A stretch of 17,615 bases of DNA from positions 1-17,615 of the forward strand of contig CAXTTL010000089.1 of the NCBI GenBank assembly GCA_964247135.1, in the 5' to 3' direction. The position numbers were made by a program, and so were the translations under genes. Source of the stretch: an uncultured Deinococcales bacterium. Its GTDB lineage: Bacteria; Deinococcota; Deinococci; Deinococcales; JAAFIG01. Positions within the stretch are counted from its first letter, which is position 1; each line of letters begins with the position of its first letter. The notes below the pieces were generated by a model. The model searched no databases. It was not told the DNA's origin and worked only from the letters and a program-made list of their open reading frames with translations. Shown piece by piece: positions 5,048 to 17,052 of the stretch.

Positions 5048-5139
5048 GTAGGGTGCGCCGTGCGCACCACGGGTAAACGACGGTGCGCACGGCGACCATG
5101 CCCGTTAGGTGCATTTTATGGTCAAGACGTGCACCCTAC
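5048..5139. repeat. Inverted pair of GTAG-type REP palindromes (REPIN-like); second copy interrupted
   Basis: GTAGGGTGCGCCGTGCGCACC (5048-5068) and its exact reverse complement split into GGTGCGCACGGC (5082-5093) and GCACCCTAC (5131-5139). It lies between convergent amidase and pstB. Confidence 0.8.
5094..5130 (+). mobile_element. 37-bp hairpin mini-element inserted in a REP (copy A)
   Basis: GACCATGCCCGTTAGGTGCATTTTATGGTCAAGACGT. Removing it restores the REP exactly. It is 33/37 identical to copy B at 9333-9369. Boundaries are ambiguous by about 1 nt. Confidence 0.7.
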
Positions 5140-8939: not shown

Positions 8940-8971
8940 GGATAATTCCTCCGCCGCTGAGTTTGCTCGGC

Positions 8972-8991
8972 AATTGTCATGGCAGCGTCAG
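8972..8991 (-). promoter_or_regulatory. Pho-box-like 11-bp-periodic direct repeat upstream of pstS
   Basis: Minus strand CTGACGC-TGCC-ATGACAA-TT (plus strand TTGTCAT-GGCA-GCGTCAG) resembles the 7-4-7 CTGTCAT Pho box. It matches the site at 9460-9479. Confidence 0.65.
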
Positions 8992-9098
8992 GGCAAAGCG
9001 CGATAACCCGAGCATCAATATTTATGATTTGCTTAGGTTTCTCGAGCGTCCAAAATGCTTTGGCGTGTTCAAAAAATGAGTTGCAATTGTGCCATTTT

Positions 9099-9290
9099 AC
9101 TCTTGACCATAATAAATAAATACGCACCTTCTTGAACCTAAGCCTGCACCGGGCAGGTTCGCTCACGGGCATGGTAGCTCATCTCCGACCCTTCCTACCC
9201 CTTACGGCAGCACTTCAAGACGCACCTTACGGGCGAAACCGCTTCAGGCTTTGGGCGCTTCTCCTGCCTGGCGGGCTACGGTTTGCACAC
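9099..9290 (-). other. Structured non-coding element (candidate ncRNA or MITE) with a mini-element-like 3' module and a nested insert
   Basis: Repeated GCCC-GNNA-GG(TGC) hairpins and stems AAACCG/CGGTTT and CAGGC/GCCTG. It ends in ACCATGCCCGTGAG[insert]GTGCG..TATGGTCAAGA. Confidence 0.5.
9128..9161 (-). mobile_element. 34-bp variant mini-element nested within a family member (copy C)
   Basis: C-GAACCT-GCCC-GGTGC-AGGCTT-AGGTTC-AAGAAG. Removing it restores GCCCGTGAGGTGC in the host copy. Confidence 0.6.
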
Positions 9291-9320
9291 AAATATTCAG
9301 TTGATTCCGATTCGTGCGAA

Positions 9321-9422
9321 AGGATGCAGCAAGCTTCTTGACCATAAAATGCACCTGGCGGGCATGGTCGCAGCATCCCCACAACCCTGTTTTTTGTCGT
9401 AGGGGCGCTGCTTGCTGCGCCT
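9321..9422. repeat. Inverted pair of GTAG/GTGG-type REP palindromes; one copy interrupted
   Basis: GTAGGGGCGCTGCTTGCTGCGCCT (+, 9399-9422) and GTGGGGATGCTGC|TTGCTGCATCCT (-, 9382-9321), the latter split by a 37-bp insert. Confidence 0.72.
9333..9369 (-). mobile_element. 37-bp hairpin mini-element inserted in a REP (copy B)
   Basis: GACCATGCCCGCCAGGTGCATTTTATGGTCAAGAAGC. Removing it restores a REP colinear with its neighbour. Confidence 0.7.
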
Positions 9423-9459
9423 TGCCTCTGCGCTTATTTGCCAGCCGCGTTGCTTTCCC

Positions 9460-14548: not shown

Positions 14549-16279
14549 TTACTCAAACTGATCGAGTTTGACCCAGCCGTACCAGAGCGGTGCAATCGTA
14601 CCAACCAGGGTAAAGACCAGCAACAAGCCAAGCACCAACATTCCCTCGAGGTTGGCAAAATAACTTAAACCAGGATAAAGGCTGGGCTGGGTGACACTCA
14701 GGTATGCGGGTCGCGCCACAATAAGCACCAAAAACCCCGAGTAAAACAATGAAAGCACCATGTACAACAAACCGCCCGCACTGACCGCCACTTCCGCAGG
14801 GTTATCGGCTTTAAAACGCGGCAGGGCAGCGCCCACGCCCACGCCAAGCGCCGTGATCGCCAAAGCGCTCGAGATTGCCACCATCACACTCGAGAGTTGC
14901 AGCACGGCAGAAAGGTTTAAACTGCTGGCGCTAAAATAACCCAGCACCAACGCCAGCAGCAAAGTTGCCGGCAATGCGCCCCAGTATTTTGCCAGCACGA
15001 TGTTGCGGCTCGAGATTGGACCGGTGCGCAAAATCCAAAAGCCAGGACCTTCAAAACTGACGGTTGGGAATGCCATGCGAATGCCCACGCCCGAGATCAC
15101 AAAACCTTGAAACGCCAGGGTCATAAAACCAACTGCGTTTTTCATCAACTCGCCCTGAATTGGGAATGCACGAACACTGACCACGTACACGCCGCCGAGC
15201 GCCACCAGAATCAAGAGCTGCGACCATTGCGTGGCGTCCCTGAACAACAACCTTGCATCTTTGACGATCAAATGCCCACTGGCACCAAATGTTCCAAAGA
15301 AATTCTCGATGCCACTCGCTACCCTTGGGGTTGGGTCAAGCCGCACCCTGGAACTCTCGAGACCACGCACCCAACCCTCCTGATAGGCTTTGCTGGCAAG
15401 CCAACCTGCCACCAATAACAACAGAGCCGACAAGACCACCAGCGGGTAAATGCTGGTGGAAAACGAACCTCGAGCGCCATCCCAGATCACCCGAGACGCC
15501 CAGGAACTTGGCAGCAAGGGGTTGGACGGCGTGCCAAATTGCGTTAAAAACTGGGTGATGGCACTGTCGTTATCCAGATTCGCCAGGCGTTTGATCAGTT
15601 CTTCGGGTTTGGCGGCACGAATCAGGTACACCAAACTGGCGGACAGGATCACGCCCAAGCCAGTCGCCACCTCGCGCACACGACCGGCGGGGGCAAAACG
15701 CATCAGCAAAATGGCAATGCCCGCGCCCAAGCCCACGGGCAAGGCATACGCCAAAAGTGCCGAGAGCACCGCCAACGGATAAAACCAAAACGGCGCCTGA
15801 AAGAACACTCCGATTGCCAGCAACGGCGGTACAGTCAAGAGTGAAGGCACACCAGCCGCACTCAGGTACGTCTCGCCAAGCTTAAGCGCGAACACCCGAG
15901 CCGTCGGAATTGGTTGCGCCAACAAAAAATTCAGATCATCGCTCGAGTACAAGGTCGTGATTGCCGTGGTGATCGCCGAAAAGGTCACACCCGACGCCAG
16001 CACGATCAACCCCGTCTCGAGCGCCCGTTGCGCCACGCTGCGCCCGACCAAACTGCAAGACTCGGAAAAAATCTTGCCGAAGTTACAGAGGAACGTCATG
16101 GCTCGGTGCGTGCCCTCGAGTTCGGCGTACACGACCAGCATCACCACTGACAAAATGATGAAATACCCCAGTTTTGGACCCCGGCTAAGCGCATTGTAAA
16201 AAGCCCGAAATTTCAGGTTCAACAGCGAACTCGAGACGTTCGCATTGCCTGTCACATTCGCGGATTTCACCAGTGACAT
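14549..16279 (-). CDS. Putative ABC-2-type exporter permease (large multi-TM)
   Basis: 576-aa highly hydrophobic protein with DDLNFLLAQPI and FWILRTGPIS repeat motifs; TAATG-coupled to the ATPase gene. Confidence 0.85.
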   Translation of the reverse strand: MSLVKSANVTGNANVSSSLLNLKFRAFYNALSRGPKLGYFIILSVVMLVVYAELEGTHRAMTFLCNFGKIFSESCSLVGRSVAQRALETGLIVLASGVTFSAITTAITTLYSSDDLNFLLAQPIPTARVFALKLGETYLSAAGVPSLLTVPPLLAIGVFFQAPFWFYPLAVLSALLAYALPVGLGAGIAILLMRFAPAGRVREVATGLGVILSASLVYLIRAAKPEELIKRLANLDNDSAITQFLTQFGTPSNPLLPSSWASRVIWDGARGSFSTSIYPLVVLSALLLLVAGWLASKAYQEGWVRGLESSRVRLDPTPRVASGIENFFGTFGASGHLIVKDARLLFRDATQWSQLLILVALGGVYVVSVRAFPIQGELMKNAVGFMTLAFQGFVISGVGIRMAFPTVSFEGPGFWILRTGPISSRNIVLAKYWGALPATLLLALVLGYFSASSLNLSAVLQLSSVMVAISSALAITALGVGVGAALPRFKADNPAEVAVSAGGLLYMVLSLFYSGFLVLIVARPAYLSVTQPSLYPGLSYFANLEGMLVLGLLLVFTLVGTIAPLWYGWVKLDQFE

Positions 16280-17052
16280 TAAGCCGCCGCCTTCTCTCGA
16301 ACATTTTGCCGCTCGAGTTCTTCTTCCTCGACCAATTTAAAGAAAATCCGCTCGAGCGTGTTGCCCTCCACGCCGCCGCGTTCCGTGCCAGATTGATGTT
16401 GAAGTTCCTCGAGCGTGCCCTCCGCCAGAATATGCCCACGATCCAAGACCGCAATTCGGTGCGCCACCGCTTCCGCCACCGGCAAGGAATGCGTGGTCAA
16501 GAGCACGGTTTTCCCCTTCGCCGCATAACCCGCCAGCAATTCCCGCGCCTGTTTTGCCGCCCGAGGGTCAAGTCCAACCATCGGTTCGTCCACAATCAAC
16601 ACCGGCGGTTCGGGCAGCATGGCTGAAATAATGGTCAATTTCTGCTTCATACCGTGCGAGTAGGTTTCGATCAATTCATTGCCAAAATCTTCCAGGCTAA
16701 AAAACTCGAGCCAGCGTTCAATCTCCGAGTTTGGATTCTCGAGCTTGTGCAGCCCCGCAATAAACCGCAGCAACTCGCGCCCCGTCAACTTGGCGTACAA
16801 ATACGGACGGTCTGGAATGTAACCAAACGCCGCCTTGGCTTTGACCGGTTCGCGCCAGACATCAAAACCCCCAACCCGCACCGTACCCGTACTCGGGCGT
16901 GTCAAACCCACCATCGCGCGAATGGTCGTGGTTTTGCCCGCGCCGTTCGGTCCAAGAAGCCCAAAAACCTCGCCAGGAACGACTCTTAAATTCAGTTTGG
17001 AAACCGCCTCAACCCGACCATAGCGTTTCGAGAAACCCTCAATCTCAATCAT
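16279..17052 (-). CDS. ABC transporter ATP-binding protein
   Basis: GPNGAGKTT, YSHGMKQK signature, LIVDEPMVGLDP and TTH motifs. Confidence 0.95.
   Translation of the reverse strand: MIEIEGFSKRYGRVEAVSKLNLRVVPGEVFGLLGPNGAGKTTTIRAMVGLTRPSTGTVRVGGFDVWREPVKAKAAFGYIPDRPYLYAKLTGRELLRFIAGLHKLENPNSEIERWLEFFSLEDFGNELIETYSHGMKQKLTIISAMLPEPPVLIVDEPMVGLDPRAAKQARELLAGYAAKGKTVLLTTHSLPVAEAVAHRIAVLDRGHILAEGTLEELQHQSGTERGGVEGNTLERIFFKLVEEEELERQNVREKAAA

Follow-up and report, generated by a model that had tools for sequence, protein, structure and literature searches.

Very short hairpin insertion elements in Deinococcales split palindromic repeats and nest in their own loop

[quoted passage not shown] The small dispersed repeats (SDRs) of cyanobacteria, attributed to Elhai et al. 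in 2008, are said to be 21–27 nt long, mutually nested, located in otherwise conserved sequence and without a known mobilising enzyme. The transposases associated with repetitive extragenic palindromes (REPs), called REP-associated tyrosine transposases (RAYTs), cut the folded single-stranded REP at CT on either side, and the tetranucleotide adjoining the REP stem selects the cut site (part of the text of PMC8266576). The same part of that source gives hairpin recognition, a single-strand circle intermediate and no target duplication for the IS200/IS605 family. Here we describe a hairpin unit found in contig CAXTTL010000089.1 of an uncultured Deinococcales bacterium (assembly GCA_964247135.1); the whole contig of 17,615 nt is called the window. 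The 37-mer of the window is a member of a superfamily of non-autonomous hairpin insertion elements of 36–42 nt, which occupy considerably more than 100 places in this bacterium and its relatives. Very probably, these units are non-autonomous elements that insert independently.

The unit lacks defining features of each known family for which these could be tested. Like REPs and their paired form (REPINs) in RAYT systems, it is a short, high-copy and mostly intergenic hairpin with several sequence classes per genome; both are presumed to be processed as single strands, and the same genome has genuine REPtrons. In contrast, neither a GTAG head, which the host REPs carry, nor a CGTC head is present in the unit, and units flank none of the RAYT genes. 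The unit's loop is large and conserved, its 3′ tail is conserved and its stem sequence is free, and it inserts into REPs and into itself. To our knowledge, nesting and tandem arrays of this kind have not been reported for REPs. Nesting is also said to occur in SDRs, but the unit differs from what is reported of them in its length (36–42 nt), its host (Deinococcales) and its sequence. The IS200/IS605 family with its palindrome-associated transposable elements (PATEs) is likewise characterized by the lack of a target duplication and by one orientation beside a short motif, both of which are found for the unit, and by hairpin recognition. However, PATEs contain two distinct subterminal hairpins in at least 100 nt, whereas the unit contains one hairpin in 36–42 nt. 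With MITEs and the Rickettsia palindromic elements the unit shares the non-autonomous nature, the high copy number and an occasional in-frame insertion into genes (site C2 and an open reading frame (ORF) on contig C24, see below), but it has no terminal inverted repeats and no target duplication.

The IS110/IS1111 elements that target REPs (IS621, ISPpu9 and ISPpu10) resemble the unit in the absence of target duplication, the CT core and the repeated hairpins at the target (part of PMC11208160), and the ssr9 module mobilised by ISPpu9 is also a small non-coding module movable by itself (part of PMC12288879). In contrast, the unit encodes nothing, its ends are unlike those of the resident IS110 element, it is abundant where no IS110 gene was found, and the IS110 element here is a parasite of the unit. 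Literature searches, covering main texts without supplements, returned no description of the unit, and two sequence words of the unit gave unrelated primer-like matches among the matches listed; related IS110 targets could be contained in the supplementary target lists of the bridge-RNA papers. The unit is unusual in that it nests in itself at a fixed loop position, combines a free stem with a fixed loop and tail, and has a dedicated IS110 parasite.

In the window, the unit splits the second REP of an inverted REP pair (site 1, Table 1), as the initial annotation had described from the letters of the window. The second copy lies on the minus strand (site 2) and splits a different REP, as also described, which is a degenerate REP2-like palindrome. 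The two copies are identical at 33 of 37 positions, and the four differences are two apical loop bases and two tail bases. When up to three mismatches were allowed, the 34-nt core matched twice in the window, while 0.00 matches were expected and none of 200 shuffles contained a match. The reported 6-bp inverted repeat with its asymmetric tail is correct: the repeat is subterminal, the tail of 7 nt is one-sided, and there is one hairpin per unit. Two further units of the window had been overlooked, a nested pair at 9101–9178 on the minus strand and a truncated unit on the same strand. The whole REP pair with the insert folds more stably than shuffled sequences (z = −6.19).

The genome of the window (G000; 5.09 Mb, 386 contigs, 52.6% G+C, 84% complete) contains many copies. 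Other genomes are given G numbers here, and contigs of G000 are given C numbers. With the 37-mer as query, a short-word BLAST search of G000 returned 89 hits that were at least 16 nt long and scored at least 30 bits. A pattern for closed units (GCCCG, 0–3 bases, AGGTGC, 9–16 bases, AAGA) found 160 units on 103 contigs and none in the reversed genome. A looser token (GCG, 5–6 bases, GCCCG) was uninformative, with 894 matches versus 838 in the reversed sequence, and was dropped. The alignment of 72 units gave the following order: GCG, a first stem of 6–7 nt, GCCCG, 1–2 variable bases, AGGTGC, a T-rich stretch of 4–8 nt, the return stem, AAGA and three variable bases. All 72 units begin with GCG and end with CAAGA plus three variable bases, and the columns of the loop and the tail are invariant. 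In a single-stranded DNA fold, the unit forms the outer stem and a small inner stem.

The stem sequence is free. At least ten stem variants exist, in which the pairing is compensated while the loop and the tail are unchanged. In the alignment of 72 units, five of the six pairs of the outer stem change on both sides, and the four inner pairs and the loop never vary. The alignment rows were chosen for at least five of six pairs, which makes the percentage paired circular; the real evidence for covariation is the count of unselected units. A pattern without any pairing requirement found 158 units, mostly with fully complementary stems of differing sequence. GACCAT/ATGGTC was the most frequent stem (53 units), followed by GGTTTC/GAAACC (15), GATCCC/GGGATC (7), and GATTCC/GGAATC, GACCCT/AGGGTC and GATGCC/GGCATC (5 each); this pattern scores the 7-nt stem classes out of register. 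Of the 160 closed units, 14 are no more than 150 nt away from a contig end, and on C74 one array borders a run of N. Units probably break assemblies, and the copy numbers are therefore lower bounds.

The units are concentrated in one family of the order. A covariance model (R1) was run over 61 genomes of the order, with counts that saturate at 109 candidates. Besides G000, 11 of the 12 relatives from the window's own family gave matches, usually about 100 or more; the low counts in this family were 15 in G011 and 0 in G015. In four other families, 3 of 48 genomes gave a single weak match each (E 3e-5 to 5e-4). An exact-pattern scan with one genome per species found at least 97 stretches, and all 80 of the matches listed were titled 'MAG: Deinococcales bacterium' (MAG, metagenome-assembled genome). 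No stretch in viral contigs fitted the generic unit pattern.

Besides further copies, now found in at least 100 places in most related genomes, the initial annotation had named two other things to look for, empty orthologous sites and REPs in which the 37-mer is lacking; both exist. Precise empty alleles in sister species were found for seven orthologous sites. At site 1 of the window, G001 and G003 have the uninterrupted REP1 partner, and G000 has the 37-mer. G004 has at this place a GACCAT-type unit holding a GATTCC-type unit in its loop, and the spacers of G002 and G005 are unrelated. On contig C44, site A in a repeat of the EE family is empty in G001, occupied by a GCCCCAA-type unit in G000 and G003 and by a GACCAT-type unit in G002. 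Site B (REP2) is empty in G005 and filled in G000 and G001, site C1 (REP2) is empty in G001 and G003 and filled in G000, and site E is empty in G003 and carries a 38-nt unit in G000. Site C2 (~15610–15650 of the C44 stretch) directly follows the ATG CCC AAC of an ORF, and the insert is in frame. It is empty in G001 and G005, G000 has a 36-nt unit with a GATCCT stem, and G002 and G003 have a GACCTT stem with compensatory differences; the left flank has diverged by one base, so the junction is not exact. The seventh site is located in the left end of an IS110 element, where G014 is empty and six other copies are filled with units of two different subfamilies.

Two of these sites, site A and the site in the IS110 left end, are thus occupied by different subfamilies in different genomes, and such differences at one site point to repeated events. 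For site 2 of the window, no clean empty allele was seen among six congeners. The sister species are nearly equidistant (~87–91% identity in the gene adjoining site 1), so gains and losses cannot be polarised; either direction needs precise events. Each of three sequencing runs from a single study contained 5% of the words sampled, and no RNA data set containing them was listed. The contigs of these runs show a relative about 90% alike whose intergenic content at site 1 is different. In the same contigs no clean joint removing a unit was seen, which is not decisive.

Comparison of filled and empty alleles revealed no target duplication, consistent with the initial annotation, and a microhomology of 0–3 nt, mostly AG (with AAG, GAG or GC at other sites). 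On the opposite strand, most insertions read left flank, CT, unit, CT and right flank, and the empty allele has one CT. In 30 of 37 contexts classed as 'other', GCG is preceded by A, so that the unit has AG at its left border and at its right border alike.

The 143 closed units that fit a stricter pattern were sorted by their hosts. Thirty-three occupy another unit's loop, 11 come directly after a unit, 29 are in GTAG-type REPs, 33 are in the EE palindromic repeat family, and 37 are elsewhere, in further repeat families and unique sequence. Most copies of the host repeats are intact, namely 105 of REP1 (6 with a unit), 81 of REP2 (8 with a unit), 16 of REP3 (3 with a unit) and 72 EE junctions (16 occupied); the 37-mer is not a constant part of the REP. 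The targeting proposed earlier was REP- or hairpin-directed. REPs and other palindromes are indeed hit, but targeting is not REP-specific, since units also occupy repeats other than REPs, unique sites, an IS element and, most of all, their own loop.

Entry into the loop occurs at a single point, located between GCCCG with its variable bases and GTGC, and the orientation never changes. Of the nested junctions, 49 are direct and none is inverted; the two hits of the inverted pattern are chance matches outside units. A token parser found 154 clusters, of which 124 have depth 1, 23 depth 2, 6 depth 3 and 1 depth 4, with some of its categories being noise. Tandem runs contain up to 4 units with a period of 36–37 nt.

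These contexts also bear on the possibility that the units are not mobile alone and spread passively inside REPINs or composite repeats, by gene conversion or template switching at palindromes. High-copy repeats hold 62 of the 143 closed units (29 in GTAG REPs and 33 in EE), 44 more are in or next to units, and some subfamilies are fixed in particular larger repeats, all of which would be expected from passive spread. However, units in unique sequence have precise empty alleles, as at site C2 after the start codon and in the IS110 left end, the flanking homology offered by a REP is merely 9–12 nt, and neither the single loop position and orientation of nesting (49 to 0) nor the different subfamilies at one orthologous site fit such an origin. 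Passive spread as the whole explanation is therefore rather improbable.

The conserved loop and tail and the covarying stems could also belong to a structured RNA or a protein-binding site selected by the host, such as a terminator, an RNA stabiliser or a nucleoid site, the copies of which are kept by selection. Units are mostly intergenic, which would suit this function; 40 overlap called ORFs, mostly at the ORF ends, as judged by crude gene calls. The Rfam search of the window gave no match at E ≤ 1. The orientation of units relative to genes is random (28 to 31), and convergent, divergent and tandem spacers hold units roughly as such spacers occur. At sites that are otherwise conserved, sister species differ in whether a unit is present, and no regulatory logic is obvious in the nested and tandem copies. 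Since insertion would not be explained by a host function itself, such a function would complement mobility rather than replace it; as a substitute for mobility it has very little probability.

The loop of the unit is also the target of another element. The single IS110 element of G000 (C51) is inside a unit inside a REP1. Seven copies of this IS110 element in seven genomes (G000, G001, G003, G004, G010, G012 and G014) have identical junctions: GCAC and then CT form the end of the left flank, and the right flank begins with two variable bases and then CGGGC. This is the sequence of the unit's loop, whatever the stem subfamily. The copy in G014 is in the innermost of three nested units. The copy in G010 is in a loop-like sequence outside any unit, so the ends of the IS are fixed. 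These ends, TGTAAGTT... and ...ACGGCTG, differ from the ends of the unit. The resident IS110 element thus targets the unit, as other members of its family target REPs.

The 5′ non-coding end of the IS110 element (1323–1432 of the C51 stretch in G000) is predicted to form a stem enclosing an internal loop. The 5′ strand of this internal loop repeats the left flank, and the reverse complement of CT together with the right flank forms its 3′ strand. In all seven copies, which include four variants (Table 1), the guide-like 3′ strand agrees with the target of its own copy at the two variable loop bases. The guide-like 5′ strand matches the flank in G000, G001 and G004 and has one mismatch in the other four copies. 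The same loop architecture with a CT core has been described for bridge RNAs (part of PMC11208160). The predicted structure looks like a natural retargeting of the IS110 bridge RNA to the loop bases of the unit. The Rfam search of the IS110 locus gave no match at E ≤ 1.

In six of the seven IS110 copies, a unit is in turn located ~50 nt upstream of the ORF, bordered by ...GAACGG CT and GC(A/C)TGAAC (~1375–1420 of the C51 stretch in G000). This unit is of the GACCCA type in G000, G001, G003 and G010 and of the GCGAGTA type in G004 and G012, and the place is uninterrupted in G014, on the reverse strand of contig C26 of that genome. The distribution of these subfamilies is discordant with the similarity of the IS copies, suggesting separate events. 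The last eight bases of the right end of the IS recur in the interrupted stretch, which, judged from this repeat, may be the donor guide. A right donor guide in the IS110 RNA was looked for and not located.

The shared insertion point raises the question of whether an IS110 enzyme moves the units. The units would then be minimal donors of an IS110-type bridge recombinase, in the form of a 37-bp double-stranded circle with the junction ...GGTCG-CT-TCTTGACC... and a CT core, the IS110 recombinase and the bridge RNA acting in trans. On the opposite strand, the IS110 insertions and the nested units have the same letters in the same orientation (GCAC, CT, insert, CT, NNCGGGC), but the shared CT is the only CT in the loop, which makes it a weak coincidence. 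CT is present on both sides of the insert in the loop, in REP3, in EE repeats, at site E and in the IS left end, and the tandem arrays contain the sequence of the circle junction; at the REP1 and REP2 sites, however, the flanking dinucleotide is GC. A 22-bp donor is enough for IS621 with the bridge RNA in trans, with CT as the conserved core (part of PMC11208160), and ISPpu9 mobilises a small non-coding module alone (part of PMC12288879). In contrast, the left donor arm of the unit would include the stem, which exists in at least ten subfamilies that one donor guide could not serve, and the unit targets share about 3 bases around the core, far fewer than a bridge-RNA target. The unit ends are also unlike the IS ends. 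Of 18 genomes from the unit-bearing family, 8 gave IS110-family genes (PF01548), and none was found in the unit-rich genomes G005, G007, G008, G009 and G013, which are 91–94% complete (G005: 92%, 80 contigs, 110 matches). Because of the different ends, the absence from many unit-rich genomes and the donor arm that would cover the variable stem, the IS110 element is unlikely to be the mobiliser of the unit. The analogy with IS110 elements drawn in the initial annotation has to be turned around: the resident IS110 lacks the ends of the unit and uses the unit's loop as its target.

The search for an enzyme gave one IS110-family gene and four Y1 hits in G000, identified with NCBIfam (Table 1), and no Y1 or IS110 gene was found on the contig of the window. 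An IS110 or RAYT locus with ends matching those of the unit, suggested earlier as a check, did not emerge, since the IS110 ends differ and the RAYT genes are flanked or interrupted by GTAG REPs rather than units. The autonomous parent was searched for as complementary stem halves 80–8000 nt apart and as first-stem halves followed by foreign DNA, and only nested units and one IS110 insertion were found. Three far pairs of stem halves (3.9–7.4 kb) look like separate units. Only 8 pairs of units are 250–3500 nt apart, and two inverted pairs enclose an ORF like S-adenosylmethionine (SAM) synthetase and a tRNA cluster. No gene tellingly flanked by units was found in G000. A unit of 36–42 nt cannot encode a protein, and its description as ultra-small and non-autonomous therefore stands. 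Among 30 relatives, Y1 genes were found in 15 of 18 genomes of the unit-bearing family versus 1 of 12 from other families. As a separate observation, the REP that appears to interrupt the RAYT-like gene on C5 (1480–1515 of the C5 stretch) contains in its stem the ATGGTC/GACCAT hexamers of the commonest unit stem, in the opposite arrangement.

The account we favour is that the unit is a non-autonomous hairpin element moving as a single strand by means of a trans-acting enzyme, with a Y1 HUH transposase as the leading candidate; we give this whole account a probability of about 0.55. The unit would move as a folded single strand, and the enzyme would read the loop and the tail but not the stem sequence. 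It would cut at a dinucleotide on each side, and the released strand, probably a minicircle, would be pasted beside the same dinucleotide elsewhere. Exposed strands of other hairpins would be the preferred destinations. Because the end of the unit would itself recreate the target, tandem arrays would arise, and because the loop holds one such dinucleotide, units would nest. For many copies, passive spread inside larger mobile repeats is probable as well.

A Y1 HUH transposase of the IS200/RAYT kind would be the most likely enzyme. It is favoured because the fold is kept without the stem sequence, the loop and the one-sided tail are exact, there is no duplication, insertions have one orientation beside a short motif, hairpins are targets and arrays are head-to-tail. 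In two RAYT systems, certain loop bases tolerate no change and a stem swap has only a moderate effect (part of PMC8266576), and by analogy this tolerance would match the conservation pattern of the unit. The assignment to a hairpin-reading, single-strand HUH/Y1 class is nevertheless tentative and stands somewhat below even odds.

Several observations weigh against this account. No units are located beside the RAYT genes of G000, two of which are intact, or beside its IS200 gene, and no enzyme is tied to the units. Two genomes contain units and gave no Y1 hit, G008 (91% complete, 56 matches) and G006 (74% complete, 102 matches). A GTAG guide beside the stem is lacking in the unit. Insertions into REP1 and REP2 are bounded by GC instead of AG, so the cut register is either not fixed or not resolved. 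The orientation of units does not follow the local GC skew (65 to 58, p = 0.59; the mean absolute skew is 0.019 and the power low), and units in tandem spacers are directed 28 times with and 31 times against the genes, also with low power and crude gene calls. A lone unit folds no more stably than its shuffles (z = −1.47). One larger repeat has a GCCCCAA-type unit fixed in four copies (C27, C30, C189 and C256), and another has a GACCCAA-type unit fixed in three (C40, C104 and C244). Part of the copy number is thus hitch-hiking and need not reflect independent insertions.

Taken together, the initial annotation is supported in its core and corrected on the targeting and on the role of IS110, and we infer the mechanism, including the mobilisation in trans. 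A more far-reaching picture joins these elements. The hairpin of 36–42 nt would be a complete transposable unit, the smallest known with all of its own cis signals, moving as a single-stranded minicircle and targeting its own loop, which would give nests and tandems. It would stand at the centre of a four-level parasitic stack (unit in IS110 in unit in REP), in which the bridge RNA of the IS110 would be naturally reprogrammed to the variable loop bases of the unit, and the units would insert in the IS region that resembles the IS donor guide. As a whole, this combined picture is possible but doubtful.

Table 1. Features of the window, Y1 and IS110 genes of the genome G000, and variants of the IS110 flank and guide
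Feature	Position, contig or genome	Strand	Details
Intact REP1 copy (GTAG-headed palindrome, GTAGGGTGCGCCGTGCGCACC)	5048–5068	+	left half of inverted REP pair
Inverted REP1 partner, 5′ part, split by unit	5082–5093	+	uninterrupted in orthologous G001, G003
Hairpin unit copy 1, GACCAT stem subfamily, 37 nt	5094–5130	+	covariance model 5092–5130, 57.3 bits, E 1.2e-18
Split REP1 partner, 3′ part	5131–5139	+	
Outer degenerate ACCAT-type unit, 3′ half (return stem and tail)	9101–9128	-	
Inner unit in the outer unit's loop, GAACCT stem subfamily	9129–9162	-	covariance model 9127–9162, 40 bits, E 1.9e-12
Outer degenerate unit, 5′ half (first stem and GCCCG)	9163–9178	-	
Truncated unit, GGTTTC subfamily	9213–9242	-	partial covariance-model match 9214–9237, 23.8 bits
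Degenerate REP2-like host palindrome of copy 2, one half	9322–9332	.	sequence read directly
Hairpin unit copy 2, GACCAT stem subfamily	9333–9369 (listed extent to 9371)	-	covariance model 61.7 bits, E 3.3e-20
Degenerate REP2-like host palindrome of copy 2, other half	9372–9380	.	sequence read directly
Intact REP2 copy, example of an unoccupied target	9399–9421	+	
IS110 RNA-guided transposase	C51		197 bits (cut-off 140); single copy
IS200 transposase	C249		134.8 bits; own hairpins at ends, unrelated to unit
RAYT (NF047646)	C1		196.9 bits; REP1-like copies either side
RAYT (NF047646)	C136		83.2 bits; REP2 copies either side
RAYT, truncated	C5		51.8 bits; GTAG REP interrupts gene
IS110 flank TTCGGG	G000, G001, G012		guide CCCGAAG
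IS110 flank TGACGG	G004, G010		guide CCGTCAG
IS110 flank TATCGG	G003		guide CCGATAG
IS110 flank TTACGG	G014		guide CCGTAAG

The two sites of the window are located in different spacers. The spacer of site 1 is bordered by convergent genes for an amidase and an ABC-transporter ATPase, and that of site 2 by divergent genes for a phosphate-binding-protein-like product and a response regulator. The latter spacer (8940–9437) is hypervariable among the six congeners (107–680 bp). In G001 and G003 it contains ~450 nt of extra, mutually similar sequence, which may be an additional small gene. On contig C44 of G000, ~140 nt with a perfect GTAG palindrome pair (16195–16350 of the C44 stretch) are replaced by 13 nt in G003 and G005; this difference is a REPIN-type insertion polymorphism independent of the units. 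On contig C24 (28860–28925), a REP3 with a 36-nt GATTCC-type unit is located inside an open frame of 936 aa, and the frame is open across the insert. Judged by eye, the product is helicase/nuclease-like with a C-terminal cysteine cluster.

The multiplication of REPs, SDRs and other very small repeats has long been an open question, for which the unit family offers unusually clean material. The clean alleles, the strict insertion point and orientation in the loop, and the stem variants with a fixed loop define what the enzyme must read. With these parts defined, a biochemical search for the enzyme is directly possible with short oligonucleotides. The tracking of the target by the guide in seven of seven IS110 copies bears on the evolution of programmable recombinases. 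In these metagenome-assembled genomes, the units probably break the assembly, and their in-frame insertions into genes affect annotation.

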